From positions 54,379-118,378 of the forward strand of contig CAXHJY010001633.1 of assembly GCA_964016885.1 (NCBI GenBank): 64,000 nt of DNA, in the 5' to 3' direction. This stretch comes from Eledone cirrhosa (taxonomy: Eukaryota). The notes under the pieces were generated by a model. It ran no database searches. It had not been told where the DNA came from and saw nothing but the letters and a program-made list of their open reading frames with translations. A program made the position numbers and the translations under genes. The stretch's first letter is position 1. Each line of letters begins with the position of its first letter. Positions 21,001-64,000 of this stretch are shown here, piece by piece.

Positions 21001-24000
21001 TCAATTGCTAGACTGGGTTGTGTTCTGTTGAGGTGTGTGGCCTAGTGGTAAGGGTGTTGGACTGACCATCAGAATGTTGTAGGTTCAATTGCTAGACTGG
21101 GTTGTGTGTTGTGTTCTGTGCAGGTGTGTGGCCTAGTGGTAAAGGTGTTCGACTGACCATCAGAATGTTGTAGGTTCAATTGCTGGACTGGGTTGTATGT
21201 TGTGTTCTGTGGAGGTGTGTGGCCTAGTGGTAAGGGTGTTGTTCTGACCATCAGGATGTTGTAGGTTCAATTGCTAGACTGGGTTGTGTGTTGTGTTCTG
21301 TGGAGGTGTGTGGCCTAGTGGTAAGGGTGTTGGATTGACCATCAGGATGTTGTAGGTTCAATTGCTGGACTGGGTTGTGTGTTGTGTTCTGTGGAGGTGT
21401 GTGGCCGAGTGGTAAGGGTGTTGGATTGACCATCAGTATGTTGTAGGTTCAATTGCTGGACTGGGTTGTGTGTTGTGTACTGTGGAGGTGTGTGGCCTAG
21501 TGGTAAGGGTGTTGGACTGACCATCAGAATGTTGTATGTTCAATTGCTAGACTGGGTTGTGTGTTGTGTTCTGTGGAAGTGTGTGGCCTAGTGGTAAGGG
21601 TGTTGGACTGACCATCAGAATGTTGTAGGTTCAATTGCTAGACTGGGTTGTGTGTTGTGTTCTGTGGAAGTGTGTGGCCTAGTGGTAAGGGTGTTGGACT
21701 GACCATCAGAATGTTGTAGGTTCAATTGCTAGACTGGGTTGTGTGTTGTGTTTTGTGGAGGTGTGTGGCCTAGTGGTAAGGGTGTTGGATTGACCATCAA
21801 GATGTTGTAGGTTCAATTGCTGGACTGGGTTGTGTGTTGTGTTCTGTGGAGGTGTGTGGCCTAGTGGTAAGGGTGTTGGACTGACCATCAGAATGTTGTA
21901 TGTTCAAATGCTAGACTGGGTTGTGTGTTGTGTTCTGTGGAAGTGTGTGGCCTAGTGGTAAGGGTGTTGGATGGACCATCAGGATGTTGTAGGTTCTATT
22001 GCTAGACTGGGTTGTGTGTTGTGTTCTGTGGAGGTGTGTGGCCTAGTGGTAAGGGTGTTGGACTGACCATCAGGATGTTGTAGGTTCAATTGCTGGACTG
22101 GGTTGTGTGTTGTGTTCTGTGGAGGTGTGTGGCCTAGTGGTAAGGGTGTTGGACTGACCATCAGGATGTTGTAGGTTCTATTGCTAGACTGTGTTGTGTG
22201 TTGTGTTCTGTGGAGGTGTGTGGCCTAGTGGTAAGGGTGTTGGACTGACCATCAGAATGTTGTAGGTTCAATTGCTAGACTGGGTTGTGTGTTGTGTTCT
22301 GTGCAAGTGTGTGGCCTAGTGGTAATGGTGTTGGACTGACCATCAGGATGTTGTAGGTTCAATTGCTGGACTGGGTTGTGTGTTGTGTTCTGTGGAGGTG
22401 TGTGGCCTAGTGGTAAGGGTGTTGGACTGACCATCAGAATGTTGTAGGTTCAATTGCAGGACTGGGTTGTGTGTTGTGTTCTGTGGAGGTGTGTGGCCTA
22501 GTGGTAAGGGTGTTGGACTGACCATCAGGATGTTGTAGGTTCAATTGCTAGACTGTGTTGTGTTCTGTGGAGGTGTGTGGCCTAGTGGTAAGGGTGTTGG
22601 ACTGACCATCAGGATGTTGTAGGTTCAATTGCTAGACTGGGTTGTGTTCTGTGGAAGTGTGTGGCCGAGTAGTAAAGGTGTTGGACTGACCATCAGAATG
22701 TTGTAGGTTCAATTGCTGGACTGGGTTGTGTGTTGTGTTCTGTGGAGGTGTGTGGCCTAGTGGTAAGGGTGTTGGACTGACCATCAGAATGTTGTATGTT
22801 CAATTGCTAGACTGGGTTGTGTGTTGTGTTCTGTGGAAGTGTGTGGCCTAGTGGTAAGGGTGTTGGACTGACCATCAGAATGTTGTAGGTTCAATTGCTA
22901 GACTGGGTTGTGTGTTGTGTTCTGTGGAAGTGTGTGGCCTAGTGGTAAGGGTGTTGGACTGACCATCAGAATGTTGTAGGTTCAATTGCTAGACTGGGTT
23001 GTGTGTTGTGTTTTGTGGAGGTGTGTGGCCTAGTGGTAAGGGTGTTGGATTGACCATCAGGATGTTGTAGGTTCAATTGCTGGACTGGGTTGTGTTCTGT
23101 GGAGGTGTGTGGCCTAGTGGTAAGGGTGTTGGATTGACCATCAAGATGTTGTAGGTTCAATTGCTGGACTGGGTTGTGTGTTGTGTTCTGTGGAGGTGTG
23201 TGGCCTAGTGGTAAGGGTGTTGGACTGACCATCAGAATGTTGTAGGTTCAATTGCTAGACTGGGTTGTGTGTTGTGTTCTGTGGAGGTGTGTGGCCTAGT
23301 GGTAAGGGTGTTGGATTGACCATCAGGATGTTGTAGGTTCAATTGCTGGACTGGGTTGTGTTCTGTGGAGGTGTGTGGCCTAGTGGTAAGGGTGTTGGAT
23401 TGACCATCAAGATGTTGTAGGTTCAATTGCTGGACTGGGTTGTGTGTTGTGTTCTGTGGAGGTGTGTGGCCTAGTGGTAAGGGTGTTGGACTGACCATCA
23501 GAATGTTGTATGTTCAAATGCTAGACTGGGTTGTGTGTTGTGTTCTGTGGAAGTGTGTGGCCTAGTGGTAAGGGTGTTGGATGGACCATCAGGATGTTGT
23601 AGGTTCTATTGCTAGACTGGGTTGTGTGTTGTGTTCTGTGGAGGTGTGTGGCCTAGTGGTGAGGGTGTTGGACTGACCATCAGGATGTTGTAGGTTCAAT
23701 TGCTGGACTGGGTTGTGTGTTGTGTTCTGTGGAGGTGTGTGGCCTAGTGGTAAGGGTGTTGGACTGACCATCAGGATGTTGTAGGTTCTATTGCTAGACT
23801 GTGTTGTGTGTTGTGTTCTGTGGAGGTGTGTGGCCTAGTGGTAAGGGTGTTGGACTGACCATCAGAATGTTGTAGGTTCAATTGCTAGACTGGGTTGTGT
23901 GTTGTGTTCTGTGCAAGTGTGTGGCCTAGTGGTAAGGGTGTTGGACTGACCATCAGGATGTTGTAGGTTCAATTGCTGGACTGGGTTGTGTGTTGTGTTC

Positions 24001-39000: not shown

Positions 39001-41639
39001 CATCAGAATGTTGTATGTTCAATTGCTGGACTGGGTTGTGTGTTGTGTTCTGTGGAAGTGTGTGGCCTAGTGGTAAGGTTGTTGGATGGACCATCAGGAT
39101 GTTGTAGGTTCTATTGCTAGACTGGGTTGTGTGTTGTGTTCTGTGGAGGTGTGTGGCCTAGTGGTAAGGGTGTTGGACTGACCATCAGGATGTTGTAGGT
39201 TCAATTGCTAGACTGGGTTGTGTTCTGTGGAGGTGTGTGGCCTAGTGGTAAGGGTGTTGGACTGACCATCAGAATGTTGTAGGTTCAATTGCTAGACTGG
39301 GTTGTGTGTTGTGTTCTGTGGAGGTGTGTGGCCTAGTGGTAAGGGTGTTGGACTGACCATCAGGATGTTGTAGGTTCAATTGCTAGACTGGGTTGTGTTC
39401 TGTGGAGGTGTGTGGCCTAGTGGTAAGGGTGTTGGACTGACCATCAGAATGTTGTAGGTTCTATTGCTAGACTGGGTTGTGTGTTGTGTTCTGTGGAGGT
39501 GTGTGGCCTAGTCGTAAGGGTGTTGGATTGACCATCAGGATGTTGTAGGTTCTATTGCTAGACTGGGTTGTGTGTTGTGTTCTGTGGAGGTGTGTGGCCT
39601 AGTGGTAAGGGTGTTGGACTGACCATCAGGATGTTGTAGGTTCAATTGCTGGACTGGGTTGTGTGTTTTCTTCTGTGGAGGTGTTCGGCCTAGTGGTAAG
39701 GGTGTTGGACTGACCATCAGGATGTTGTAGGTTCAATTACTGGACTGGGTTGTGTTCTGTGGAGGTGTGTGGCCTAGTGGTAAGGGTGTTGGACTGACCA
39801 TCAGGATGTTGTAGGTTCAATTGCTAGACTGGGTTGTGTTCTGTGGAGGTGTGTGGCCTAGTGGTAAGGGTGTTGGACTGACCATCAGGATGTTGTAGGT
39901 TCAATTACTAGACTGTGTTGTGTTCTGTGGAGGTGTGTGGCCTAGTGGTAAGGGTGTTGGACTGACCATCAGGATGTTGTAGGTTCAATTGCTAGACTGG
40001 GTTGTGTATTGTGTTCTGTGGAAGTGTGTGGCCTAGTGGTAAGGGTGTTGGACTGACCATCAGGATGTTGTAGGTTCAATTGCTGGACTGGGTTGTGTTC
40101 TGTAGAGGTGTGTGGACTAGTGGTAAGGGTGTTGGACTGACCATCAGGATGTTGTAGGTTCAATTGCTAGACTGGGTTGTGTGTTGTGTTCTGTGGAAGT
40201 GTATGGCCTAGTGGTAAGGGTGTTGGACTGACCATCAGAATGTTGTAGGTTCAATTGCTAGACTGGGTTGTGTGTTGTGTTCTGTGGAAGTGTGTGGTCT
40301 AGTGGTAAGGGTGTTGGACTGACCATCAGAATGTTGTAGGTTCAATTGCTAGACTGGGTTGTGTGTCGTGTTCTGTGGAGGTGTGTGGCCTAGTGGTAAG
40401 GGTGTTGGACTGATCACCAGGATGTTGTAGGTTCAATTGCTGGACTGGGTTGTGTGTTGTGTTCTGTGGAGTTGTGTGGCCTAGTGGTAAGGGTGTTGGA
40501 CTGACCATCAGAATATTGTAGGTTCAATTGCTAGACTGGGTTGTGTTGTGTTCTGTGGAGGTGTGTGGCCTAGTGGTAAGGGTGTTGGACTGACCATCAG
40601 GATGTTGTAGGTTCTATTGCTAGACTGGGTTGTGTGTTGTGTTCTGTGGAGGTGTGTGGCCTAGTGGTAAGGGTGTTGGACTGACCATCAGAATGTTGTA
40701 GGTTCTATTGCTAGACTGCGTTGTGTGTTGTGTTCTGTGGAGGTGTGTGGCCTAGTCGTAAGGGTGTTGGATTGACCATCAGGATGTTGTAGGTTCTATT
40801 GCTAGACTGGGTTGTGTGTTGTGTTCTGTGGAGGTGTGTGGCCTAGTGGTAAGGGTGTTGGACTGACCATCAGGATGTTGTAGGTTCAATTGCTGGACTG
40901 GGTTGTGTGTTTTCTTCTGTGGAGGTGTTCGGCCTAGTGGTAAGGGTGTTGGACTGACCATCAGGATGTTGTAGGTTCAATTACTGGACTGGGTTGTGTT
41001 CTCTGGAGGTGTGTGTCCTAGTGGTAAGGGTGTTGGACTGACCATCAGGATGTTGTAGGTTCAATTGCTGGACTGGGTTGTGTGTTGTGTTCTGTGGAGG
41101 TGTGTGGCCTAGTGGTAAGGGTGTGGGACTGACCATCAGGATGTTGTAGGTTCAATTGCTGGACTGGGTTGTGTGTTGTGTTCTGTGGAGGTGTGTGGCC
41201 TAGTGGTAAGGGTGTTGGACTGACCATCAGGATGTTGTAGGTTCAATTGCTGGACTTGGTTGTGTGTTGTCTTCTGTGGAGGTGTGTGGCCTAGTGGTAA
41301 GGGTGTTGGACTGACCATCAGAATGTTGTAGGTTCAATTCCAGGACTGGGTTGTGTGTTGTCTTCTGTGGAGGTGTGTGGCCTAGTGGTAAGGGTGTTGG
41401 ACTGACTATCAGAATGTTGTAGGTTCAATTCCAGGACTGGGTTGTGTGTTGTGTTGTGTGGAGGTGTGTGGTCTAGTGGTAAGGGTGTTGGACTGACCAT
41501 CAGGATGTTGTAGGTTCAATTGCTGGACTGGGTTGTGTGTTGTGTTCTGTGGAGGTGTGTCGCCTAGTGGTAAGGGTGTTGGACTGACCATCAGGATGTT
41601 GTAGGTTCTATTGCTAGACCGGGCTGTGTGTTGTGTTCT
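1..41639 (+). repeat. 91-bp tandem satellite (~460 monomers, runs off the left edge) made of a tRNA-derived SINE head
   Basis: Consensus GGAGGTGTGTGGCCTAGTGGTAAGGGTGTTGGACTGACCATCAG(A/G)ATGTTGTAGGTTCAATTGCT(A/G)GACTGGGTTGTGTGTTGTGTTCTGT, head-to-tail. The ORF track shows a 91-bp step, and 84-bp monomers lacking 7 bp of the GT-rich tail are frequent. Each monomer has TGGCCTAGTGG (A box) and GGTTCAATT(G/C)C (B-box-like) about 44 nt apart. Confidence 0.97.
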
Positions 41640-41806
41640 TGAGCAAAACACTTCATTTCACATTACTCCAGTATACTCAGCTGAAAATGAGTATTCGCAA
41701 TAGCTGGGGGTTTAACCCCACAATGGACTGGCCTCTTGTCCAGGGGAACTCTGGTACTCTCAGTTACTTCAGGCCTGATGAGCTATCGGGCTCTAGGCCA
41801 ACTTTA
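41551..41806 (+). mobile_element. tRNA-derived SINE whose head is the last satellite monomer (CORE-like centre; resembles octopus OR2-type SINEs)
   Basis: The last monomer continues as TTCTTGAGCAAAACACTTCATTTCACATTACTCCAGTATACTCAGCTGAAAATGAGTA, similar to the SINE CORE motif CCTTGGGCAAGTCACTT...CATCTGTAAAATG. It is followed by ATGGACTGGCCTCTTGTCCAGGG and a GGCCTGATGAGC...ACTTTA tail. Family assignment is from recall, not a search. Confidence 0.8.
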
Positions 41807-41970
41807 GATATATATGGATAGACAGCCGTCCAGAAAATACTAAAACTAGGATCTGTAAATATTGCCAGAACACTCACGCAATAAATTTATTAACTTTGTG
41901 TACACTTTGTCTTCTAAAGTGTATTGAGTTCTTTTTTATGAATGAAAGGTACCTTCTGGTGTATTTCTCG

Positions 41971-42045
41971 AACAACAACAACAACAACAACAGCAGCAGT
42001 AGCAGCAGCAGCAGCAACAACAACAACAATAATAATAATAATAAT
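41971..42045. repeat. compound (AAC)n(AGC)n(AAC)n(AAT)n microsatellite
   Basis: Directly visible triplet runs. Confidence 0.95.
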
Positions 42046-42236
42046 CAGTTTTTATTGTCAAATAAATATGAATTGAAACGTCCTTGATTTTGTTTGTTTG
42101 TTTGTTTTAATTAATTAATTTTTTATATATCGATATATCGATATATTTCAGTAATCGATCACGTCGTCAAGGCAACTGAGATTATAAAACAACAACAATA
42201 AAACAAACAAAATTCTTCCCGCAAAATAGCAGGAAA

Positions 42237-42447
42237 GGGGATCAACGTTCAATTCTCTGGAGAGGGGATAATTTGGGGGATCAACATTCAAATCTCTGGA
42301 GAGGGGATAATTTGGGGGGAATCAATGTTCAAATCTCTGGAAAAGGGGATAATTTTGGGAGAATCAATGTTCAAATCTCTGGAAAAGGGGATAATATTTT
42401 GGAGTCAAGGTTCAAATCTTTGGATAGGGGAAATATATTTTGGGGTC
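42237..42447 (+). repeat. ~40-bp degenerate minisatellite, ~5 copies
   Basis: Unit ATCAATGTTCAAATCTCTGGA(G/A)AGGGGATAATTTGGGGG recurs five times with small indels. Confidence 0.9.
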
Positions 42448-42683
42448 ATAGCTTAAATTTCTGCTTTAGAATCATTTTTTAAAACTCAGCAGCAAACATT
42501 TTCTATATCGGTTAGATGATTGATTTACATATCGATTGATTAATTCATCAATTGATTTGGTAAATCAGAGAGAAAGAAAGCAAAATTGAAGAGAGAGAAA
42601 AGAGCATAAAAATAAAGGAGCAAAGATGGAGGAGGAGTAATTTATTAAAAAAGAAAGAATGAGGGGGGTGTAGTGATGAAAGT

Positions 42684-44370
42684 CCACAGCAACCTAAACA
42701 TCAACCATCTCAGGTGTTTAACCAATTCCACAGCCACTAGGACTGGAATATGTTTAACATTGCCACATTGACCTAAACCAGGTATGGACCATATTTAACC
42801 AGTGGAACAAGGATCTATACTCCAGACCTGGAATATGTTAAAACAATGCCGCAGTGAACTAAACACCAGGCCTGGAATATGTTTAACCAATGTTACAGTG
42901 ATCAGGCAAGACTTGTATGTAACCAATATCACAAGGATCTAAACACCAGGCATGAAATATGTTTAACCAATATTCCAAGGACCTAAACACTAAGCAAACC
43001 AGGATTTTCAATGTCATAAATATCTAAACAGCAGATGTTAGTACCTCCTTCTCGTCCAACAACCTAAACATGTAATAAGGCTTCTGTTTACTCAATGTCC
43101 CAGTAAATAAATGAAGCTGGACATATATTTAATTAAGGCATGTCACTATAATGGTGAATTAAAAACCAATGTCCCAGCAATATACACACCATGCTTCAAA
43201 CATGTTTAGATATTGTGCCACAGCAACCCAAACACCAAATAAGGCACACGTTTAGTCAACTCTCGGGTTTCGAATAATCCTCCAATCCCACCCCACCAAC
43301 ACCGCTTATTATATTTGGCTAATCTATCTCCGACGAGATTTTATTTTATATGGTGGGGTTCCTGCGACAATTAATTATCTTCAAAACATTTTAAACACAT
43401 TATATATGACAAAATAAGTACATTACTAGAAATCTCATACGTTATAAAATAGGATGGGTTGGTGTCTCAATATGTAAAGTAAATGACTAATTCTGTTTGT
43501 TTTTTAATTAAGGGAGACAACCTAGAACAATTACCGATTTTGCAGCCCCATCCTCCGCTTATTTCAACAGCCACCCACCCACCCACTTTTATTATTTGGG
43601 ACCCGAGGGTAGCTCACAAATATTAACTATGTCAGATATTTCACTGCTTTTGAAGAAATTATAAACGTCAAATATGGCTGGAGTCTAATCATTATCACAA
43701 TCTAAACACCTAGTACACTAGGTGTTTAACTAATCTGACAGCAACCAAACTACCATGTATATTGTGTACATCATATGCTTAATCAATGTCATGGCAACCT
43801 AAACACCAAATATGTCACGTCTGATGAATGTTACATCAATGTTAACACCAAGTACCACAAATGTTTAATCATTGTCACGGCAGTCTAAACACCAAGTATG
43901 ACAGATGTTTAAAAAATGTCACAGCATTGTAAACACCAAGTATAACAGGTGTTGAAAGAATGTCACAGCAATCTAAACACCAAGTATGGCAGATATTTAA
44001 CGAATGTCACAACAATCTAAACACCAAGTATGACATGTTTAAAGAATGTCACAGCAACCTAAACACCAAGTATGACATTTTAAAAGAATGTCCAGCAACC
44101 TAAACACCAAGTATAACAGGTGTTGAAAGAATGTCACAGCAATCTAAGCACCAAACATGACAGATATTTAAAGAATGTCACAGCAACCTAAACACCAAGT
44201 ATGACAGATATTTAAAGAATGTCACAGCAACCTAAACACCAAGCATAACACACGCTTAATCAATTTCATAACAACCTAAACACCAGATTAGTCAGTGTTT
44301 TATTAGTATTAAAGCAAGCTTAAACACCAAATATGTTAAATGTTTAGCTAACATCACAACCTAAACACAA
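42684..44370 (+). repeat. 44-bp minisatellite, old and degenerate on the left, homogeneous at ~43860-44245, interrupted by an insertion
   Basis: Unit GTCACAGCAACCTAAACACCAAGTATGACAGATATTTAAAGAAT (starts at 44177 and 44221). The CTAAACACCA...TGTTTAA motif recurs from ~42690. Confidence 0.88.
43259..43611. mobile_element. putative MITE (~350 bp) inserted in the 44-bp minisatellite
   Basis: Imperfect terminal inverted repeats: ACTCTCGGGTTTCGAATAAT on the left and ATTATTTGGGACCCGAGGGT on the right. The minisatellite register is broken here and resumes after it. Confidence 0.65.
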
Positions 44371-44414
44371 ACAATTCAATGACAATTCTGGATAAAATAT
44401 TTTCAAAGAAAATA

Positions 44415-44457
<43 letters not shown>

Positions 44458-44489
44458 AGTAGTAGTAGTAGTAGTTGTTGTTGTTGTTG
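44415..44489. repeat. (TAG)n/(TTG)n microsatellite
   Basis: Directly visible. Confidence 0.95.
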
Positions 44490-45104
44490 CTTCTTTTCGT
44501 CTTCTTAGGTGCAAGTTTGAGTTATTTCACTTATTTAAATCAGTGAGGTGTGATTTGAGGGAGGTTTAGCTGCTCTTTCTTGCAAGTCGAGTAAACAGGT
44601 ACTGGCACGGCTGTTGTTTCGGTGGGTCCGTTGCTACTGCTACTACCACTGTTATTATTATTGTCATTATTGTGTACTTTTACTCGGCCTTATTGTAAAC
44701 CACCACTGTCCCTGTCTTTGTATTGTCCTCTACTTGTCGGCCCTTGTGGCCAATAAAGGAAATCATTATTATTGCTGCTGTGGTTGCTGCTGTTGTGTTG
44801 TCGTTGCTATTGTTGTTGTTGTTGGTGGTGGTGGTGGTGGTGTCAATGAAGAAATATCAGTGTACATTGGGGTCTTAAAGCTTTTGGCTTCGGCAACATA
44901 TTTGCAGGGAGCAAAACATTACGAGAGACTGAAACAGTGAGGTGACGGGTTCAAATCAATGCTGGGGAGTTTTTAAATTTAACACTGAGATCTTTTATTT
45001 CTATCACAAATGGGTAGCGGCCAGGGGGAAGCAACAGTGGTGGAGTTGAATGAGATGTGTCAGAGTAGAGGACGAGAGACTGGTGGGATGGGGTTAGGGA
45101 TTTG

Positions 45105-45176
45105 AAGGTGGGACTAAGGTGGGACTAAGGTAGGACTAAGGTGGGACTAAGGTGGGACTAAGGTGGGACTAAGGTG
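45105..45176 (+). repeat. 11-bp G-rich minisatellite (AAGGTGGGACT) x ~6.5
   Basis: Near-perfect tandem copies with one G>A variant. Confidence 0.93.
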
Positions 45177-45363
45177 AGATGGTGAGAGGTTTGAACATAA
45201 CGAAGGTTCACTTTGGGTTAAGTTGGGGCAAGTTTAGAACAGCATGAGAATAACAGGAATACTTCTCAAATTGTAGGGTACACCACTTACCCATACTCAC
45301 AGATTCTTCCTGTGAGCTACGAAATGTATACATATATCTATATACACGCACATACATGCATGC

Positions 45364-45367
<4 letters not shown>

Positions 45368-45427
<60 letters not shown>
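45368..45427. repeat. (TA)n microsatellite
   Basis: Directly visible. Further (TA)n tracts at ~45625-45681, 49482-49591 (with CA), 49638-49671, 49740-49802 and 51613-51675. Confidence 0.97.
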
Positions 45428-45432
<5 letters not shown>

Positions 45433-45622
45433 AACAATGTACGAAGCTCAATTTTCGGCTTTTGAAGCGCTGATTTTATATGCAATTATATAAGTATAAA
45501 GTTTTCAAACGCAAAAATGCTTTAAAGATAACTTATAAAATTTGTTTCCGTCTTTTAAGGAGCTTCACCCTATTTCATAAGCTATCTTTGTACCGTTTCT
45601 GCTCTTGAGCACTTTCCTTATA

Positions 45623-45684
<62 letters not shown>

Positions 45685-45831
45685 ATATTGTATAAAATAC
45701 AAGTCAAACTGTCGTATACTTGCTAAGGTATTCGGAGTTTCTTGGAGTTGTATTCACTTCATTCTTCAGTCTTCAGAAAGTCATTTATACAATATAATAT
45801 ATTTACCTCAATGATTACAGCCATACATTCA

Positions 45832-46026
45832 CAGACATGTCAACCTTCCCCGACCGACGGGGATATTTCCCATCCACTTTGCGGCGGGTGAGAGATGTCT
45901 TTTCAAGTGAAAATGGGTATAACTTTCATTATGTAAAATCTCCCCATTTTGCCACATTTCTCCCCGTTTTGGGGCACTTTTTTTCATGGTATCTCCCGCT
46001 TGGGTTTTTAGAGGTTGGCAAGTCTG
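45832..46026. mobile_element. 195-bp MITE with hAT/Tip100-like termini and a 6-bp target-site duplication
   Basis: Left TIR CAGACATGTCAACCT and right TIR (reverse complement) CAGACTTGCCAACCT match at 13/15. CATTCA flanks both ends directly (45826-45831 and 46027-46032). Confidence 0.8.
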
Positions 46027-46277
46027 CATTCAAGCAATATATATATATAAATATATATAATGTGTATATTAAATCATACATGTATTTCCATGTCATTCTT
46101 CAGAGTAGAGTTGTTTTTAGCAGTGTAGGTGGCCAATAATGACTGGTTTAGTTCAGGATTGCTGTATGCAAACCTTTTTGAATTAAATGTTTGAAGGCTC
46201 AGCTTTTCCTCCCGTTCAAATTCTGAAATACAAAAAAATTGGTAAAAATAAAATAAAATTATATATAGAATGGGATA

Positions 46278-46465
46278 ATTGTTTCTACTTTTGGCACAAG
46301 ATCAGCAATTATCCCAGTGTATTGCTGTTACTTTATTTTATCGACCCCATAAGGATAAAAGGCAAAGTTAACCTCGGTGGGATTTGAACTCGGATCATAA
46401 AGGGTCGGAACTATTTGCTGCAAACCATGCGTGCGACCCTCTACCGATACTGCCAATCCACCGCC
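46278..46465 (-). mobile_element. tRNA-derived SINE, second family (octopus-like), near full length
   Basis: Minus strand reads GGCGGTGGATTGGCAGTATCGG (A box)...GAGTTCAAATCCC (B box)...GCCTTTTATCCTTATGGGGTCGATAAAATAAAGTA...TTGTGCCAAAAGTAGAAACAAT. It aligns end to end with the copy at 50345-50532. Confidence 0.9.
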
Positions 46466-46586
46466 CGTATATAGACAATAGCATAGTAGTAGTAATTTAC
46501 GTTCTAATTCAATTTCAAATGCCGCCGGTGTTAGCTTTGTGTCTTTTTTCCTTACAAGGACGATACAATATAGTAACAATAATTCA

Positions 46587-46655
46587 TTGGGGTTATTTAA
46601 TCGACTTTCCCCTCCACCACAACTGTTGGCCTTCTCATTAAGTCGGAAACCACTT
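46587..46655 (+). mobile_element. probable 3' fragment of the second SINE family
   Basis: GGGGTTATTTAATCGACTT...TGTTGGCCTTCTC...GAAACC resembles the TGCTGGCCTTGTGCC...GAAAC tail of the other copies. Short and degenerate. Confidence 0.45.
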
Positions 46656-46829
46656 TATAGGATTGCCTAGTAAAATCATATTTTCTTATCGGTTAGACAG
46701 GAAGAAAAGCAATGCCTTTGAGACGGATAGAAGTAAAAACAAAAAGTATCCATGAACCAGAGACTTGTTCATGGCATCAAATGACCAGGTGGTAGTGTTA
46801 AACCGGGCGATGGATTAACTCTGTAACTC

Positions 46830-46930
46830 AGATAGGCAATGACAAGATTTAAACTCAGAACTCATTAAGCCTGAGCAATACGACAAGCCATTTTATCTGA
46901 CGTTCTAATAATGAAGCTACTCTACGCCAC
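46830..46930 (-). mobile_element. degenerate SINE of the second family; its head forms the adjacent 42-bp array
   Basis: GATTTAAACTCAGA (46846) matches GATTTGAACTCAGA (B box, reverse strand) in the copies near 48974 and 50447, at the expected distance from the head. Confidence 0.7.
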
Positions 46931-47264
46931 CATTTTATCTGACGTTCTAATAATGAAGCTACTCTACGCCACCATTTTATCTGACGTTCTAATAATGAAG
47001 CTACTCTACGCCACCATTTTATCTGACGTTCTAATAATGAAGCTACTCTACGCCACCATTTTATCTGACGTTCTAATAATGAAGCTACTCTACGCCACCA
47101 TTTTATCTGACGTTCTAATAATGAAGCTACTCTACGCCACCATTTTATCTGACGTTCTAATAATGAAGCTACTCTACGCCACCATTTTATCTGACGTTCT
47201 AATAATGAAGCTACTCTACGCCACCATTTTATCTGACGTTCTAATAATGAAGCTACTCTACGCC
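46889..47264 (-). repeat. 42-bp perfect minisatellite x9 derived from a SINE 5' end
   Basis: CATTTTATCTGACGTTCTAATAATGAAGCTACTCTACGCCAC starts at 46889, 46931 ... 47225, and the copies are identical. It shares GACGTTCTAAT with the SINE head near 49029 and ends in CGCC like the other copies. Confidence 0.95.
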
Positions 47265-47329
47265 CTTTAGATAGATTTATTTCAACAAAACATTCCTAAC
47301 AAGGCCTGAACATAATAGAATTTGTCACT

Positions 47330-47584
47330 GCTTCCGTCTCTCTCGCTCTCCCCATCTCTCACTATTATAGGCAAATGGGGGTCCACACGCTGGCCGCCCC
47401 ACGGCCCCGGTGGACAGAATAGAGAGGGTGGTTCCTCGGAGGATGGTGAAGGAGAGGTGCTGGAAGAGCCATTCCAGCTCCTGAGGCTCACACCTGCGAG
47501 TAGCCAGCACTGTACCGATGGTGGTGAGTAGGGAGGTGGTCCTAGGGCCAAGGACACCAGAAGTCTTCACAGTTACGGGGTACA
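47330..47584 (-). mobile_element. 5'-truncated CRE-like (restriction-like endonuclease) non-LTR retrotransposon relic
   Basis: Translation PVTVKTSGVLGPRTTSLLTTIGTVLATRRCEPQELEWLFQHLSFTILRGTTLSILSTG matches the recalled CRE C-terminal pattern PxAVETxGxxGP...(D/E)PRExxWLFQRLSxAxxRGNAxSIL. Confidence 0.75.
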
Positions 47585-47757
47585 GATGGTGGTGAGTAGG
47601 GAGGTGGTCCTAGGGCCAAGGACACCATAAGTCTTCACAGTTACGAGGTACAGATGGTGGTGAGTAGGGAGGTGGTCCTAGGGCCAAGGACACCAGAAGT
47701 CTTCACAGTTACGGGGTACAGATGGTAGTAAGTAGGGAGGTGGTCCTAGGGCCAAAG
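47512..47757 (-). repeat. 68-bp tandem repeat x ~3.5 at the 5' truncation of the CRE-like relic
   Basis: GATGGTGGTGAGTAGGGAGGTGGTCCTAGGGCCAAGGACACCAGAAGTCTTCACAGTTACGGGGTACA starts at 47517, 47585, 47653 and 47721 (partial). Confidence 0.95.
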
Positions 47758-47760
47758 ACT

Positions 47761-47880
47761 TGGTACTTTATTTTATTGACATCGAAAGACTGAAAAAAAA
47801 CAAGTTAACTTCAGTGAGATACGAGAACTGGAATAAATACAAGACATTTTTTCTTTCCTTCTCTCTAATGACTCTGATGA
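47761..47880 (-). mobile_element. degenerate partial SINE of the second family
   Basis: TGGTACTTTATTTTATTGAC...GAAA...CAAGTTAACTTCAGTGAGAT aligns with 50392-50449. Confidence 0.7.
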
Positions 47881-50344: not shown

Positions 50345-50532
50345 ATTGTTTCTACTATTGGCACAAGGCCAGCAATTACCCAGTACATTACTGGTACTTT
50401 ATTTTATCGACCCCGTAAGGATGAAAGGCAAAGTTAACCTCGGCGGGATTTGAACTCAGACCGTAAAGGGACGTAACTCTATACGTCAAAGCATGGTGTC
50501 CGACCCTCTACCGATACTGCCAATTCACCGCC
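50345..50532 (-). mobile_element. SINE of the second family, best-preserved copy
   Basis: Minus strand GGCGGTGAATTGGCAGTATCGG...GAGTTCAAATCCCGCCGAGGTTAACTTTGCCTTTCATCCTTACGGGGTCGATAAAATAAAGTACCAG...GGCCTTGTGCCAATAGTAGAAACAAT. ATATATAATAT occurs on both flanks. Confidence 0.92.
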
Positions 50533-51610: not shown

Positions 51611-51674
<64 letters not shown>

Positions 51675-51681
<7 letters not shown>

Positions 51682-52528
51682 TTAGAAACACACAGATACA
51701 TGCGGACACACACATATATACATGAATGCATCCGCACCCAACTGTGAGTTAAGGGTGCCAACTTCACCGATGTTGCTCAATGAATGACTGGGACAGACCA
51801 ATTCAGTTGAACTAGACTGAACCAGTATCAGAGTTAAAAATACATTATGAAGAGAGAAGAAACATTTAGATATAATTAGTAATAAAATGTATCATACCTA
51901 AACTGCTCCTAAATTCCTCGACTACGTAGTTTCGTGGCATAAACAAAAACAATATATCATAAAGATATAGAGTCCTTGCGAGGTCTGCCGACTTATCAAG
52001 AGGATACCTCATTTTACTAGTCTCAAGAACGCGTCTACACGACGTGAGAAAGAATCCCAAAAGGCGGAGGGGGAGATAGTCACGCGATATAACGGTCGAG
52101 AAACAGAGCTAAGCCTCTTATAACCCCGAAGAAAATACCACGGAGGCGGAGGGGGTATTTATATCGAGGCCGTAGAAGAGGTGGTGAAGAAGGCGAGAAG
52201 TATGAGTAATGGAAGCTTTCCAGCTGTCCCCACACTTCAAAGATTGCTCGACCAGAGGGAGTTATTAACAATATATTTAGAAACACACAGATACATGCGG
52301 ACACACACATATATACATGAATGCATCCGCACCCAACTGTGAGTTAAGGGTATCAACTTCACCGATGTTGCTCAATGAATGACTGGGACAGACCAATTCA
52401 GTTGAACTAGACTGAACCAGTATCAGAGTTAAAAATACATTATGAAGAGAGAAGAAACATTTAGATATAATTAGTAATAAAATGTATCATACCTAAACTG
52501 CTCCTAAATTCCTCGACTACGTAGTTTC
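51675..52528 (+). repeat. ~259-bp direct duplication (51675-51933 and 52270-52528)
   Basis: Offset 595 bp. The only difference I saw is GGGTGCCAAC versus GGGTATCAAC. Confidence 0.93.
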
Positions 52529-52546
52529 ATAAGTCGGTTTCATAGT

Positions 52547-52659
52547 TTGATAAGTCGGCAGACCTCGCAAGGACTCTATATCTTTATGATATATTGTTTT
52601 TGTTTATGCCACGAAACTACGTAGTCGAGGAATTTAGGAGCAGTTTAGGTATGATACAT
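52547..52659 (-). repeat. 113-bp inverted copy of 51887-51999
   Basis: TTGATAAGTCGGCAGACCTCGCAAGG...TTTAGGTATGATACAT is the reverse complement of ATGTATCATACCTAAA...GCCGACTTATCAA. Confidence 0.93.
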
Positions 52660-55600
52660 ACCAACACCACCACCTTCACGACCAACACCACCACCTTCAC
52701 CACCAACACCACCACCTTCACTACCAACACCACCACCTTCACTACCAACACTACCACCTTCACTACCAACACCACCACCTTCACCACCAACACCACCACC
52801 TTCACCACCAACACCACCACCTTCACTATCAACACCACCACCTTCACCACCAACACCACCACCTTCACTACCAACACCACCACCTTCACTACCAACACTA
52901 CCACCTTCACTACCAACACCACCACCTTCACCACCAACACCACCACCTTCACCACCAACACCACCACCTTCACTATCAACACCACCACCTTCACCACCAA
53001 CACCACCACCTTCACTACCAACACCACCACCTTCACTACCAACACCACCACCTTCACCACCAACACCACCACCTTCACTACCAACACCTTCACCACCAAC
53101 ACCACCACCTTCACCACCAACAACACCACCTTCACTATCAACACCACCACCTTCACCACCAACACCACCACCTTCACTACCAACACCACCACCTTCACTA
53201 CCAACACTACCACCTTCACTACCAACACCACCACCTTCACCACCAACACCACCACCTTCACCACCAACACCACCACCTTCACTATCAACACCACCACCTT
53301 CACCACCAACACCACCACCTTCACTACCAACACCACCACCTTCACTACCAACACCACCACCTTCACTACCAACACCACCACCTTCACCACCAACACCACC
53401 ACCTTCACTACTAACACCTTCACCACCAACACCACCACCTTCACCACCAACACCACCACCTTCACTACCAACACCACCACCTTCACCCCCAACACCACCA
53501 CCTTCACTACCAACACCACCACCTTCACCACCAACACCACCACCTTCACCACCAACACCACCACCTTCACTACCAACACCACCACCTACACTACCAACAC
53601 CACCACCTTCACCACCAACACCACCACCTTCACAACCAACACCACCACCTTCACTACCAACACCACCACCTTCACCACCAACACCACTACCTTCACTACC
53701 AACACCACCACCTTCACCACCAACACCACCACCTTCACCACCAACACCACCACCTTCACTACCAACACCACCACCTTCACCACCAACACCACCACCTTCA
53801 CAACCAACACCACCACCTTCACTACCAACACCACCACCTTCACCACCAACACCACCACCTTCACAACCAACACCACCACCTTCACTACCAACACCACCAC
53901 CTTCACCACCAACACCACCACCTTCACCACCAACACCACCACCTTCACCACCAACACCACCACCTTCACTACCAACACCACCACCTTCACCACCAACACC
54001 ACCACCTTCACTACGAACACCTTCACCACCAACACCACCACCTTCACTACCAACACCACCAGCTTCACCACCAACACCACCACCTTCACCACCAACACCA
54101 CCACCTTCACCACCAACACCACCACCTTCACCACCAACACCACCATCTTCACCACCAACACCACCACCTTCACCACCAACACCACCACCTTCACCACCAA
54201 CACCACCACCAACACCACCACCTTCACCACCAACACCACCACCTTCACCACCAACACCACCACCTTCACTACCAACACCACCACCTTCACTACCAACTCC
54301 ACCACCTTCACCACCAACACCACCACCTTCACCACCAACACCACCACCTTCACCACCAACACCACCACCTTCACTACCAACACCACCACCTTCACCACCA
54401 ACACCACCACCTTCACTACCAACACCTTCACCACCAACACCACCACCTTCACTACCAACACCACCAGCTTCACCACCAACACCACCACCTTCACCACCAA
54501 CACCACCACCTTCACCACCAACACCACCACCTTCACCACCAACACCACCACCTTCACTACCAACACCACCACCTTCACTACCAACACCACCACCTTCACT
54601 ACCAACACCACCACCTTCACCACCAACACCACCACCTTCACCACCAACACCACCACCTTCACCACCAACACCACCACCTTCACCACCAACACCACCACCT
54701 TCACTACCAACACCACCACCTTCACTACCAACACCACCACCTTCACTACCAACACCACCACCTTCACTACCAACACCACCACCTTCACCACCAACACCAC
54801 CACCTTCACCACCAACACCACCACCTTCACCACCAACACCACCACCTTCACTACCAACACCACCACCTTCACTACCAACACCACCACCTTCACTACCAAC
54901 ACCACCACCTTCACTACCAACACCACCACCTTCACCACCAACACCACCACCTTCACTACCAACACCACCACCTTCACCACCAACACCACCACCTTCACTA
55001 CCAACACCACCACCTTCACTACCAACACCACCACCTTCACTACCAACACCACCACCTTCACCACCAACACCACCACCTTCACTACCAACACCACCACCAA
55101 CACCACCACCTTCACTACCAACACCACCACCTTCAGCACCAACACCACCACCTTCACTACCAACACCACCACCTTCACTACCAACACCACCACCAACACC
55201 ACCACCTTCACTACCAACACCACCACCAACACCACCACCTTCACTACCAACACCACCACCTTCACTACCAACACCACCACCTTCAGCACCAACACCACCA
55301 CCTTCACTACCAACACCACCACCTTCACTACCAACACCACCACCTTCACCACCAACACCACCACCTTCACTACCAACACCACCACCTTCACCACCAACAC
55401 CACCACCTTCACTACCAACACCACCACCTTCACTACCAACACCACCACCAACACCACCACCTTCACTACCAACACCACCACCTTCACTACCAACACCACC
55501 ACCTTCACTACCAACACCACCACCTTCACTACCAACACCACCACCTTCACTACCAACACCACCACCTTCACCACCAACACCACCACCTTCACTACCAACA

Positions 55601-58600
55601 CCACCACCTTCACTACCAACACCACCACCTTCACTACCAACACCACCACCTTCACTACCAACACCACCACCTTCACCACCAACACCACCACCTTCACTAC
55701 CAACACCACCACCTTCACTACCAACACCACCACCTTCACCACCAACACCACCACCTTCACTACCAACACCACCACCTTCACCACCAACACCACCACCTTC
55801 ACCACCAACACCACCACCTTCACCACCAACACCACCACCTTCACTACCAACACCACCACCTTCACTACCAACACCACCACCTTCACTACCAACACCACCA
55901 CCTTCACCACCAACACCACCACCTTCACTACCAACACCACCACCTTCACCACCAACACCACCACCTTCACTACCAACACCACCACCTTCAATACCAACAC
56001 CACCACCTTCACCACCAACACCACCACCTTCACCACCAACACCACCACCTTCACCACCAACACCACCATCTTCACTACCAACACCACCACCTTCACTACC
56101 AACACCACCACCTTCACCACCAACACCACCACCTTCACCACCAACACCACCACCAACACCACCACCTTCACTACCAACACCACCACCTTCACTACCAACA
56201 CCACCACCTTCACTACCAACACCACCACCTTCACCACCAACACCACCACCTTCACTACCAACACCACCACCTTCACTACCAACACCACCACCTTCACTAC
56301 CAACACCACCACCTTCACTACCAACACCACCACCACCACCACCACCTTCACTACCAACACCACCACCTTCACCACCAACACCACCACCAACACCACCACC
56401 TTCACTACCAACACCACCACCTTCACTACCAACACCACCACCAACACCACCACCTTCACTACCAACACCACCACCTTCACTACCAACACCACCACCTTTA
56501 CCACCAACACCACCACCTTCACTACCAACACCACCACCTTCACCACCAACACCACCACCTTCACTACCAACACCACCACCTTCACTACCAACACCACCAC
56601 CTTCACTACCAACACCACCACCTTCACCACCAACACCACCACCTTCACCACCAACACCACTACCTTCACTTCCAACACCACCACCTTCACTACCAACACC
56701 ACCACCTTCACCACCAACACCACCACCTTCACCACCAACACCACCACCTTCACTACCAACACCACCACCTTCACCACCAACACCACCACCTTCACTACCA
56801 ACACCACCACCTTCACCACCAACACCACCACCTTCACTACCAACACCACCACCTTCACCACCAACACCACCACCTTCACCACCAACACCACCACCTTCAC
56901 TACCAACACCACCACCTTCACCACCAACACCACCACCTTCACCACCAACACCACCACCTTCACCACCAACACCACCACCTTCACTACCAACACCACCACC
57001 TTCACTACCAACACCACCACCAACACCACCACCTTCACCACCAACACCACCACCTTCACTACCAACACCACCACCTTCACTACCAACACCACCAACACCA
57101 CCACCTTCACTACCAACACCACCACCTTCACCACCAACACCACCACCTTCACCACCAACACCACCACCTTCACCACCAACACCACCACCTTCACTACCAA
57201 CACCACCACCTTCACTACCAACACCACCACCTTCACCACCAACACCACCACCTTCACTACCAACACCACCACCTTCACCACCAACACCACCACCTTCACC
57301 ACCAACACCACCACCTTCACCACCAACACCACCACCTTCACCACCAACACCACCACCTTCACTACCAACACCACCACCTTCACTACCAACACCACCACCA
57401 ACACCACCACCTTCACCACCAACACCACCACCTTCACCACCAACACCACCACCTTCACTACCAACACCACCACCTTCACTACCAACACCACCACCAACAC
57501 CACCACCTTCACTACCAACACCACCACCTTCACCACCAACACCACCACCTTCACCACCAACACCACCACCTTCACCACCAACACCACCACCTTCACCACC
57601 AACACCACCACCTTCACTACCAACACCACCACCTTCACCACCAACACCACCACCTTCACTACCAACACCACCACCTTCACTACCAACACCACCACCTTCA
57701 CTACCAACACCACCACCTTCACTACCAACACCACCACCTTCACTACCAACACCACCACCTTCACCACCAACACCACCACCTTCACCACCAACACCACCAC
57801 CTTCACCACCAACACCACCACCTTCACTACCAACACCACCACCTTCACCACCAACACCACCACCTTCACTACCAACACCACCACCTTCACCACCAACACC
57901 ACCACCTTCACCACCAACACCACCACCTTCACCACCAACACCACCACCTTCACTACCAACACCACCACCTTCACCACCAACACCACCACCTTCACCACCA
58001 ACACCACCACCTTCACCACCAACACCACCACCTTCACTACCAACACCACCACCTTCACTACCAACAGCACCACCAACACCACCACCTTCACCACCAACAC
58101 CACCACCTTCACTACCAACACCACCACCTTCACTACCAACACCACCAACACCACCACCTTCACTACCAACACCACCACCTTCACCATCAACACCACCACC
58201 TTCACCACCAACACCACCACCTTCACCACCAACACCACCACCTTCACCACCAACACCACCACCTTCACCACCAACACCACCACCTTCACTACCAACACCA
58301 CCACCTTCACTACCAACACCACCACCAACACCACCACCTTCACCACCAACACCACCACCTTCACTACCAACACCACCACCTTCACTACCAACACCACCAA
58401 CACCACCACCTTCACTACCAACACCACCACCTTCACTACCAAAACCACCACCAACACCACCACCTTCACCACCAACACCACCACCTTCACTACCAACACC
58501 ACCACCTTCACTACCAACACCACCAACACCACCACCTTCACTACCAACACCACCACCTTCACTACCAACACCACCACCTTCACTACCAACTCCACCACCT

Positions 58601-61600
58601 TCACCACCAACACCACCACCTTCACTACCAACACCACCACCTTCACTACCAACACCACCAACACCACCACCTTCACTACCAACACCACCACCTTCACCAC
58701 CAACACCACCACCTTCACCACCAACACCACCACCTTCACCACCAACACCACCACCTTCACCACCAACACCACCACCTTCACTACCAACACCACCACCTTC
58801 ACTACCAACTCCACCACCTTCACCACCAACACCACCACCTTCACTACCAACACCACCACCTTCACTACCAACACCACCACCTTCACTACCAACACCACCA
58901 CCTTCACTACCAACACCACCACCTTCACTACCAACACCACCACCTTCACTACCAACACCACCACCTTCACTACCAACACCACCACCTTCACCACCAACAC
59001 CACCACCTTCACTACCAACACCACCACCTTCACTACCAACACCACCACCTTCAGTACCAACACCACCACCTTCACTACCAACACCACCACCTTCACTACC
59101 AACACCACCACCTTCACTACCAACACCACCACCTTCACTACCAACACCACCACCTTCACTACCAACACCACCACCTTCACTACCAACACCACCACCTTCA
59201 CTACCAACACCACCACCTTCACCACCAACACCACTACCTTCACCACCAACACCACCACCTTCACTACCAACACCACCACCTTCACCACCAACACCACCAC
59301 CTTCACTACCAACACCACCACCTTCACTACCAACACCACCACCTTCACTACCAACACCACTACCTTCACCACCAACACCACCACCTTCACTACCAACACC
59401 ACCACCTTCACTACCAACACCACCACCTTCACTACCAACACCACCACCTTCACCACCAACACCACCACCTTCACTACCAACACCACCACCTTCACCACCA
59501 ACACCACCACCTTCACTACCAACACCACCACCTTCACTACCAACACCACCACCTTCACTACCAACACCACCACCTTCACACCAACACCACCACCTTCACT
59601 ACCAACACCACCACCTTCACCACCAACACCACCACCTTCACTACCAACACCACCACCTTCACTACCAACACCACCACCTTCACTACCAACACCACCACCT
59701 TCACACCAACACCACCACCTTCACTACCAACACCACCACCTTCACTACCAACACCACCACCTTCACTACCAACACCACCACCTTCACCACCAACACCACC
59801 ACCTTCACTACCAACACCACCACCTTCACCACCAACACCACCACCTTCACTACCAACACCACCACCTTCACCACCAACACCACCACCTTCACTACCAACA
59901 CCACCACCTTCACTACCAACACCACCACCTTCACTACCAACACCACCACCTTCAACACCAACACCACCACCTTCACTACCAACACCACCACCTTCACCAC
60001 CAACACCACCACCTTCACTACCAACACCACCACCTTCACCACCAACACCACTACCTTCACTACCAACACCACCACCTTCACTACCAACACCACCACCTTC
60101 ACTACCAACACCACACCTTCACCACCAACACCACCACCTTCACTACCAACACCACCACCTTCACTACCAACACCACCACCTTCACCACCAACACCACCAC
60201 CTTCACTACCAACACCACCACCTTCACCACCAACACCACCACCTTCACCACCAACACCACCACCTTCACTACCAACACCACCACCTTCACTACCAACACC
60301 ACCACCAACACCACCACCTTCACTACCAACACCACCACCTTCACTACCAACACCACCACCTTCACCACCAACACCACCACCTTCACCACCAACACCACCA
60401 CCTTCACCACCAACACCACCACCTTCACCACCTTCACCACCAACACCACCACCTTCACCACCAACACCACCACCTTCACCACCAACACCACCACCTTCAC
60501 TACCAACACCACCACCTTCACCACCAACACCACCACCTTCACCACCAACACCACCACCTTCACTACCAACACCACCACCTTCACTACCAACACCACCACC
60601 TTCACTACCAACACCACCACCTTCACTACCAACACCACCACCTTCACTACCAACACCACCACCTTCACTACCAACACCACCACCTTCACTACCAACACCA
60701 CCACCTTCACTACCAACACCACCACCTTCACTACCAACACCACAACCTTCACCACCAACACCACCACCTTCACTACCAACACCACCACCTTCACCACCAA
60801 CACCACCACCTTCACAACCAACACCACCACCTTCACTACCAACACCACCACCTTCACTACCAACACCACCACCTTCACTACCAACACCACCACCTTCACT
60901 ACCAACACCACCACCTTCACCACCAACACCACCACCTTCACTACCAACACCACCACCTTCACCACCAACACCACCACCTTCACTACCAACACCACCACCT
61001 TCACCACCAACACCACCACCTTCACTACCAACACCACCACCTTCACTACCAACACCACCACCTTCACCACCAACACCACCACCTTCACTACCAACACCAC
61101 CACCTTCACTACCAACACCACCACCTTCACTACCAACACCACCACCTTCACTACCAACACCACCACCTTCACTACCAACACCACCACCTTCACCACCAAC
61201 ACCACCACCTTCACTACCAACACCACCACCTTCACCACCAACACCACCACCTTCACTACCAACACCACCACCTTCACTACCAACACCACCACCTTCACTA
61301 CCAACACCATTACCTTCACTACCAACACCACCACCTTCACTACCAACACCACCACCTTCACCACCAACACCACCACCTTCACTACCAACACCACCACCTT
61401 CACCACCAACACCACTACCTTCACTACCAACACCACCACCTTCACTACCAACACCACCACCTTCACCACCAACACCACCACCTTCACTACCAACACCACC
61501 ACCTTCACCACCAACACCACCACCTTCACCACCAACACCACTACCTTCACTACCAACACCACCACCTTCACTACCAACACCACCACCTTCACTACCAACA

Positions 61601-64000
61601 CCACCACCTTCACCACCAACACCACCACCTTCACTACCAACACCACCACCTTCACTACCAACACCACCACCTTCACCACCAACACCACCACCTTCACCAC
61701 CAACACCACCACCTTCACCACCAACACCACCACCTTCACCACCAACACCACCACCTTCACTACCAACACCACCACCTTCACTACCAACACCACCACCTAC
61801 ACCACACCACCTTCACCACCAACACCACCACCTTCACTACCAACACCACCACCTTCACTACCAACACCACCACCTTCACCACCAACACCACCACCTTCAC
61901 CACCAACACCACCACCTTCACCACCAACACCACCACCTTCACCACCAACACCACCACCTTCACCACCAACACCACCACCTTCACCACCAACACCACCACC
62001 TTCACTACCAACACCACCACCTTCACTACCAACACCACCACCTTCACTACCAACACCACCACCTTCACCACCAACACCACCACCTTCACCTACCAACACC
62101 ACCACCTTCACCACCAACACCACCACCTTCACTACCAACACCACCACCTTCACTACCAACACCACCACCTTCACTACCAACACCACCACCTTCACTACCA
62201 ACACCACCACCTTCACTACCAACACCACCACCTTCACCACCAACACCACCACCTTCACCTACCAACACCACCACCTTCACCACCAACACCACCACCTTCA
62301 CCACCAACACCACCACCTTCACTACCAACACCACCACCTTCACTACCAACACCACCACCTTCACTACCAAACACCACCACCTTCACTACCAACACCACCA
62401 CCTTCACTACCAACACCACCACCTTCACTACCAACACCACCACCTTCACTACCAACACCACCACCTTCACTACCAACACCACCACCTTCACTACCAACAC
62501 CACCACCTTCACTACCAACACCACCACCTTCACTACCAACACCACCACCTTCACCACCAACACCACCACCACCTTCACTACCAACACCACCACCTTCACT
62601 ACCAACACCACCACCTTCACTACCAACACCACCACCTTCACTACCAACACCACCACCTTCACTACCAACACCACCACCTTCACTACCAACACCACCACCT
62701 TCACTACCAACACCACCACCTTCACACCAACACCACCACCTTCACTACCAACACCACCACCTTCACTACCAACACCACCACCTTCACTACCAACACCACC
62801 ACCTTCACCTACCAACACCACCACCTTCACTACCAACACCACCACCTTCACTACCAACACCACCACCTTCACTACCAACACCACCACCTTCACTACCAAC
62901 ACCACCACCTTCACTACCAACACCACCACCTTCACCACCAACACCACCACCTTCACTACCAACACCACCACCTTCACTACCAACCACACCACCACCTTCA
63001 CTACCAACACCACCACCTTCACCACCAACACCACCACCTTCACTACCAACACCACCACCTTCACCACCAACACCACCACCTTCACTACCAACACCACCAC
63101 CTTCACTACCAACACCACCACCTTCACTACCAACACCACCACCTTCACACCAACACCACCACCTTCACTACCAACACCACCACCTTCACCACCAACACCA
63201 CCACCTTCACTACCAACACCACCACCTTCACTACCAACACCACCACCTTCACTACCAACACCACCACCTTCACTACCAACACCACCACCTTCACCACCAA
63301 CACCACCACCTTCACTACCAACACCACCACCTTCACCACCAACACCACCACCTTCACTACCAACACCACCACCTTCACTACCAACACCACCACCTTCACC
63401 ACCAACACCACCACCTTCACTACCAACACCACCACCTTCACCACCAACACCACCACCTTCACTACCAACACCACCACCTTCACCACCAACACCACCACCT
63501 TCACTACCAACACCACCACCTTCACTACCAACACCACCACCTTCACTACCAACACCACCACCTTCACCACCAACACCACCACCTTCACTACCAACACCAC
63601 CACCTTCACTACCAACACCACCACCTTCACTACCAACACCACCACCTTCACCACCAACACCACCACCTTCACTACCAACACCACCACCTTCACTACCAAC
63701 ACCACCACCTTCACTACCAACACCACCACCTTCACCACCAACACCACCACCTTCACTACCAACACCACCACCTTCACCACCAACACCACCACCTTCACTA
63801 CCAACACCACCACCTTCACCACCAACACCACCACCTTCACTACCAACACCACCACCTTCACTACCAACACCACCACCTTCACTACCAACACCACCACCTT
63901 CACCACCAACACCACCACCTTCACTACCAACACCACCACCTTCACTACCAACACCACCACCTTCACCACCAACACCACCACCTTCACTACCAACACCACC
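52660..64000 (+). repeat. 21-bp satellite ACCAACACCACCACCTTCAC(C/T), ~540 copies, runs off the right edge
   Basis: Directly visible and derived from (ACC)n. Last base is dimorphic C/T, and shortened units of 9, 12 and 15 bp occur. Confidence 0.98.

Follow-up and report, generated by a model that had tools for sequence, protein, structure and literature searches.

The stretch of DNA analysed here, which we call the window, is 64,000 nucleotides of the octopus Eledone cirrhosa (contig CAXHJY010001633.1, positions 54,379 to 118,378). It is part of an unplaced 118-kb contig in a genome of 3.0 Gb, whose chromosomes are written C1, C27 and so on. The window holds three tandem arrays that each run into the body of a retroposon. 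Two belong to families of short interspersed elements (SINEs), with a 91-bp unit in SINE1 (464.7 units in the window) and a 42-bp unit in SINE2 (9.0 units), and the third has a 68-bp unit (3.6 units) from a long interspersed element (LINE). A preliminary description had placed all three correctly and had read them as stages of one pathway, in which the 5' end of an element is copied reiteratively as it inserts. Our results largely refute such insertion-time 5' reiteration as the common cause of all three. We consider it probable that these retroposon-derived satellites begin as rare DNA-level duplications in existing SINE or LINE copies, expand in place, and then enter homologous copies by ectopic gene conversion. 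What we observed is that arrays occur at 5', internal and 3' positions of the elements, that the same junctions recur between unrelated flanks, that arrays and their hosts have discordant relationships (units resemble each other across loci much more than the adjoining host parts do), that the hosts come from more than one subfamily, that host letters are often present in terminal units, and that arrays cluster by chromosome and near chromosome ends.

The 91-bp macrosatellite fills positions 1 to 41548 of the window on the forward strand and extends upstream to contig position 23340; its unit is SINE1 positions 1-89(91). Counted with its last unit, the array covers 2-41639 in the window and 23340-96017 in the whole contig (807 units, 72.7 kb), and it ends in a SINE body. 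The last unit (41549..41639, forward strand) starts with GTGGAGG, which is SINE1's own start. It is of the array type up to about position 66 and then reads ACCGGGCTG, which occurs only once in the whole array and which we read as host sequence. At contig position 23340 the array opens at a SINE 5' end, and there the first unit is also host-specific. The body and tail (41640..41808, forward strand) carry a 24-bp internal deletion and are 84% identical to family copies; we saw no target-site duplication (TSD) around them by eye. The GT between units had been taken for an untemplated linker. In 20 of 29 dispersed SINE1 copies GT stands immediately 5' of GGAGG, so these are simply the element's own first bases.

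The same 91-bp junction recurs with unrelated flanks at C1:1.74, C4:205.1, C12:48.2 and three loci on C23. Single units of the window array and of the array at C1:1.742-1.749 Mb, which lies 1.74 Mb from the start of C1, are 95.8% identical (96.1% within an array) and have 10 derived letters in common. The two SINE bodies are 81-83% identical, share 4 of 23 differences, and sit in unrelated flanks. We ruled out both allelism with the C1 locus and a segmental duplication, as the flanks show no homology over 3.3 kb on the left and 3 kb on the right. A pair of C23 loci tells the same story, with units 98.6% identical and hosts 86.1%, and the first unit of one locus is host-type. We read the 91-bp case as a shared array within its own host copy. 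There are also arrays of a 34-bp unit on C1, C9, C21 and C3, and this unit can be derived from the 91-bp unit by deletion between two GTGTT motifs. The one at C3:770001-865230, near the start of C3, is a macrosatellite of at least 95 kb (seen in six pieces) that repeats the SINE1 A-box segment and ends in a SINE body.

Arrays from the 3' part of SINE1 are also shared between hosts. An 84-bp array has 11 of its 14 loci on C27. Over ten of these loci the units are 97.7% identical and the 5' host parts 84.4%, against backgrounds of 86.9% and 90.9%; this comparison leaves aside the three members off C27 and one locus of a pair with shared flanks. Units were more alike than hosts in 45 of 45 pairs, which are not independent of one another, and one host bears the head of a sister SINE family. 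Segmental duplication does not account for the clusters, since only one pair among 25 loci shares flanks.

SINE3 is an independent family. The window has an ordinary copy without an array (50345..50515, reverse strand), from a young family that makes TSDs, and this copy served as the reference for the genome-wide test. Most of the SINE3 head matches listed belong to one 44/45-bp array, and we compared 23 loci of it (one a 41-bp variant) with 30 ordinary copies. A TSD encloses the array in 10 of the 14 loci with a visible 5' end. Five hosts start at positions 3-7 and miss bases that are present in their internal units; these units cannot have been copied locally from the host's own 5' end. The hosts fall into four body classes, as the ordinary copies do. 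The derived letter in TCTGAC is found in 14 of 23 arrays and never in the heads of the 30 ordinary copies; it dominates 10 of the arrays, and in 8 of these the last unit lacks it. The array is also distal: among the matches listed, 43 loci are on C1, and for 39 of them the nearer end is no more than 40 Mb away (P=6e-25 under a uniform distribution). Of the 100 family copies nearest the start of C1, 8 carry it; these 100 copies take up 5.5 Mb, a lower density than the family has on average. In the distal 40 Mb of C1 the junction spells CTAGGG or TTAGGG (the two most frequent junction strings count 82 and 124), and TTAGGG is the telomere hexamer of many animals. Taking all of these together, tracts that are more alike than their hosts and lie between non-homologous flanks, which is how we would recognize conversion, were found for the window and C1, the C23 pair, the C27 cluster and the SINE3 arrays, and were not found for a cluster on C25.

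The 68-bp array (47512..47759, reverse strand) lies in a LINE-like 3' end (47301..47579, reverse strand), consisting of the end of a coding frame and a tail. This LINE may be CRE-like, to judge from motifs only (PDG..WD.T..KY..AVE..R.S.AI.RG in a 137-amino-acid frame of a related locus); the frame had no Pfam match and was similar to unnamed eukaryotic clusters only. A search with the LINE fragment gave 30 loci, of which 10, the window included, have the array, and the exact junction pattern has 123 matches genome-wide. We enlarged the set to 26 loci by fetching places among the matches listed. The junction is fixed in all 26, the window copy, which begins mid-unit, having it in common with the 25 others examined, while the 5' ends range from reference position 1237 to 1536, and seven loci retain 13-264 bp of LINE upstream of the array. 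The unit is thus internal to the LINE and is not, contrary to what had been proposed, its 5'-most segment. Each of the LINE's three 3'-tail types is seen with this junction. The window's array adjoins the remaining 3' portion of a SINE3-type element (47760..47812, reverse strand; loose ends at 47780), so the 5' edge of the LINE need not be an insertion junction. We conclude that the 68-bp case is a member of a widespread internal array, either inherited or copied. The same LINE family has 3'-end arrays of 43, 44, 77 and 78 bp. There is an array of about 28 kb of the 68-bp unit at C1:30.03-30.06 Mb and a cluster of nine further 68-bp loci at C6:95-98 Mb.

The 42-bp array differs from the other two in being private. 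It covers 46888..47265 on the reverse strand, with units identical except for the first two letters of the first unit (46888-47264 at 100% matches), and is followed by a body with the B-box-like GAGTTTAAATC. The last unit, this motif and the body make up an old SINE2 monomer (46773..46929, reverse strand; 111.9 bits), the second monomer of a dimeric family. With one mismatch allowed, the junction has eight matches in the genome and all are in the window array. The host is 70-80% identical to most of its relatives. Identical units and a unique junction in such a host indicate a recent and private duplication, later than the SINE2 insertion. The unit is indeed the head of SINE2, although it is doubtful as the 5'-most segment. 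We picked 10 of the 19 relatives shown because their heads could be recognised, and in all 10 a different SINE monomer has its 3' end directly upstream of the head; the head here would accordingly belong to the second monomer of the dimer. The 33 bp that precede the head in the window match such a remnant weakly (7.1 bits). The junction G is templated by the body (AAAATGG-CTTG), leaving one untemplated T where a GT had been claimed. SINE2 also has an interior-derived array at C4:325.29-325.31 Mb. The 42-bp unit (46888-46929) and the SINE3 45-bp unit end at about the same position (41-42) of related heads, in ATGG and ATGC, with separate sequences; this is either coincidence or a shared fragile site. 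We take the SINE sequences of the window to resemble octopus SINEs. SINE1 and SINE2 are both dispersed in many copies, as tRNA-derived SINEs would be; neither ARAGORN nor Rfam gave a tRNA match for them, and their A and B boxes were read by eye against the consensus.

We then come to where duplications fall along the elements. For SINE1 we used matched word patterns that count duplications with 30-110 bp units. Head positions 15-24 gave 40 matches at 34 loci of 2610 and middle positions 91-100 gave 12 loci of 2610 (34 vs 12, Fisher p=0.002). Positions 133-142 gave 3 loci of 3176, and positions 204-213, in the 3' part, gave 44 of 3176, which is equal to the head (p=0.82). The expected excess of heads over middles is there, as are restarts at the first bases, but a bias specific to the 5' end is not supported. 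We classified the 34 head loci by hand into 22 junction classes. In thirteen classes the restart falls at -2..+3 relative to the first base, where 3.6 such classes would be expected; most of the remaining ones resume close to the second GTGG (position 11), and no class includes more than 7 flank bases. For SINE3, with 129,347 word pairs, duplicated matches numbered 1135 for the head word, 151 for the B-box word and 2037 for the 3' word. These are match counts and not loci, as multi-unit arrays are counted repeatedly, and the denominator of the 3' word is approximated (counts of 12 vs 10 word pairs over 200 kb point to a comparable size). The SINE3 3' matches listed are spread along C1 (22-270 Mb) and show that duplications at the 3' end are frequent and vary in length; SINE3 also has full-length tandem pairs, and both may come from repeated insertion at one target. 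None of the matches listed falls within the initial 22 Mb of C1, in contrast to the head arrays. Nine fetched stretches contained individual SINE1 copies in which the head and the 3' part were each arrayed, which suggests that one host can be converted more than once.

For the founding step, we suggest a rare duplication inside an existing SINE or LINE copy, which would often be bounded by microhomology; several units are bounded in this way (9 bp, 5 bp). We tried two other routes. Hairpin-driven slippage was rejected because three units fold no better than shuffles (z 0.37-0.67), and a nested insertion with a leftover 3' part was not seen in two SINE1 loci examined and is possible in two others. 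For the spread, a break in or near a SINE would be repaired from an array-bearing copy that is close in nuclear space, with the homology flanking the array guiding repair by synthesis-dependent strand annealing. Unequal exchange could afterwards alter the number of units. There is a bolder version of this, which we regard as speculative and rather doubtful. The arrays would be selfish conversion tracts that home through a hundred thousand SINE copies with no enzyme of their own. Close to chromosome ends they would convert as many as about 8% of the copies, and they would seed satellites 70-95 kb long or longer; head arrays would go back to true cDNA 5' junctions, and the winning unit would be favoured by its (C/T)TAGGG junction.

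Several points weigh against our preferred account of duplication followed by conversion. It is based on one assembly only, no orthologous or allelic empty site turned up in the uninformative read data (short contigs and RAD reads), and conversion does not explain why 13 of the 22 SINE1 classes restart at the first base. In 11 two-unit SINE1 loci there were 42 mismatches at 382 sites where 99 were expected from the body clock, yet this equals the 11% family background. On C27 the 3' host side could be compared in two loci only (73%). The 101-bp cluster on C25 has units at 93.4% and hosts at 92.5% (units ahead in 21 of 36 pairs), which is no discordance and is compatible with descent from a single source. 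For the LINE, 19 of the 26 loci begin inside a unit, a start that 2 of 20 copies without the array have and that truncated transcripts bearing the array would give. Its unit and host identities are 89.1% and 79.7%, but the background is 87.1% and 84.1% and is biased to top matches.

Some of these observations fit a different history, in which array-bearing master elements retrotranspose as subfamilies, truncation within the array mimics 5' reiteration, and later homogenisation raises the identity of units. The LINE loci that start inside a unit, the SINE3 arrays that lie within TSDs and the C25 cluster all suit it. However, a single junction with a derived letter runs across four SINE3 body classes, and single junctions also cross three LINE tail types and a sister-family head, the distal and single-chromosome clustering is unlike that of the parent families, and the bodies in the window and on C1 are unrelated. 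As a general account we think masters are unlikely, although for the 68-bp case alone, where they are most plausible, we would put them only somewhat short of an even chance. Arrays could instead be excised as extrachromosomal circles (eccDNA) that reintegrate by homology into another SINE copy. Circles would give the same discordance between host and array, and in the part of the Drosophila study that we could draw on they are proposed beside conversion for the Rsp-like satellite (PMC7403614). We find them improbable here, as restriction to one chromosome (as in the 84-bp class on C27) and to distal regions would seem to fit proximity better.

Reverse-transcriptase re-priming or end-joining at the 5' junction during insertion was the explanation first offered for all three arrays, and as such it is very unlikely. 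It does have points in its favour: heads are duplicated more than middles, the SINE1 restarts concentrate at the first base with at most 7 flank bases in all 22 classes, and in 3 of the 11 two-unit loci the units diverge and have no private change in common. Against this, 5 of the 11 have private changes common to both units (by eye), several SINE3 head duplications contain 10-30 flank-like bases, and 3' duplications are equally common. Products of target-primed reverse transcription at the 5' junction should show untemplated bases, a unit boundary specific to each insertion and units as old as the insertion. Instead the GT is templated, the 68-bp junction is fixed while 5' ends vary, and the identical 42-bp units sit in an old element. 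The reading of the three arrays as stages of one pathway is also not supported, with the 42-bp duplication postdating its insertion, the 68-bp junction fixed and internal, and the 91-bp units shared with a C1 host. Non-LTR reverse transcriptases such as that of R2 do template-jump at the 5' junction, joining the template 5' end to another template with untemplated bases. Template jumping predicts junctions that are tied to insertions and spread like the family, whereas the junctions here are fixed, shared and distal. As a source of some of the founding duplications, insertion-time reiteration has perhaps a modest chance, and we lean clearly against it. We also considered whether the arrays or their lengths are assembly artefacts, given the unplaced contig, the perfectly identical 42-bp units and the fact that no read-derived contig spans the arrays. 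This is extremely unlikely: the 91-bp units differ by about 4% in structured ways, shared derived arrays are present at many placed loci, and a contig from one sequencing run passes from unique DNA into the 42-bp array without differences.

Complex tandem arrays are common in the genome at large. In 20 arbitrary 10-kb stretches at round coordinates we counted 13 complex arrays with 30-150 bp units, a genome-wide background of about 1 per 15 kb. Within the 6 kb that was first flagged there are three more arrays without a retroposon head (42237-42448, 42735-42971 and 43785-44285), which are older, degenerate minisatellites of 42-44 bp. Each end of the contig is made of satellite DNA. One satellite, with a 24/25-bp unit, takes up contig positions 1-14939, and an ACC-rich 21-bp satellite of 540 units occupies window positions 52660-64000 and reaches the contig end. 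Near the latter (region 51662-52660) about 270 bp appears by eye to be duplicated (51665-51935 and 52275-52530), and right at the satellite's edge an inverted copy, 52545-52660, mirrors about 51880-52000 and resembles, again by eye, a fold-back or template-switch scar. The large arrays (1-41639, 47512-47759 and 52660-64000) are strongly G-rich on one strand, with GC skews of +0.54 and -1.0. Such one-strand G-richness is seen in unstable minisatellites with G-quadruplex potential. An Rfam search gave only matches below the gathering score, mostly on (TA)n.

The closest known arrays are sSat1-3 of squamates (Vassetzky, Kosushkin and Ryskov 2023, PMC10702118). According to the parts of that paper available to us, the tandem units are portions of tRNA-SINEs taken from the 5' side, the middle or the 3' side, and the terminal unit is longer and runs on to the SINE end. 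One unit occurs at up to thousands of loci with up to about 1200 units, units are 89% identical as compared to 64% for the SINEs, and there is a subtelomeric tendency; unequal recombination and concerted evolution are invoked. The octopus arrays are alike in their SINE-part units, terminal body and multi-locus units that are more alike than their hosts. The 91-bp unit is a portion of the dispersed SINE1 (at least 2610 copies), it is repeated at least four times (807 units) before a terminal body, and it occurs at several loci with units more alike than the SINE copies. The 42-bp unit is the SINE2 head, with nine units that end in a body. The differences are that we deal with another animal group and that a LINE is also involved. 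Those parts of PMC10702118 contain no test of one array in TSD-bounded hosts of different subfamilies and report no single-chromosome clades.

The very architecture flagged in the window is known from human, where 136 repeats of partial Alu (mean 88.6 bp) lie 5' of a full Alu (Ahmed and Liang 2012, PMC3389668, which cites Jurka and Gentles 2006 on tandem repeats that stem from transposable elements). In the accessible portion of PMC3389668, short direct repeats at the flanks explain some of these and most are unexplained. They differ in having mostly two units and in being ascribed to recombination at the endonuclease site, and that portion does not report transfer of arrays between copies. 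In Drosophila, the Rsp-like satellite enters 1.688 clusters on the X chromosome, for which the text at hand proposes interlocus conversion or eccDNA (Sproul et al. 2020, PMC7403614). As here, a fixed junction spreads, and does so within one chromosome, because an abundant repeat offers homologous landing sites. In that system one satellite lands in clusters of another, while in our case an array made from part of a retroposon lands in individual dispersed copies of that same retroposon. Our literature search, which did not extend to supplements and subscription papers, found no such arrays for octopus and no transfer into TSD-bounded SINE copies. In the available text of PMC13282606 the terms 'satellite' and 'gene conversion' are absent.

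How a dispersed repeat becomes a satellite, with one unit at hundreds of loci, is left open in what we have of PMC3389668 and is left to concerted evolution in the corresponding parts of PMC10702118. Hosts that lie between TSDs and belong to a known subfamily provide internal controls, with which the movement of arrays from locus to locus can be dated and mapped. This would yield a map of ectopic recombination, distal and within chromosomes, in a 3-Gb genome from sequence alone. Chimeras of this sort also distort SINE subfamily trees and repeat libraries. Set beside these systems, the arrays described here belong to the known sSat kind, and what is new is the evidence on how arrays spread through dispersed retroposons.

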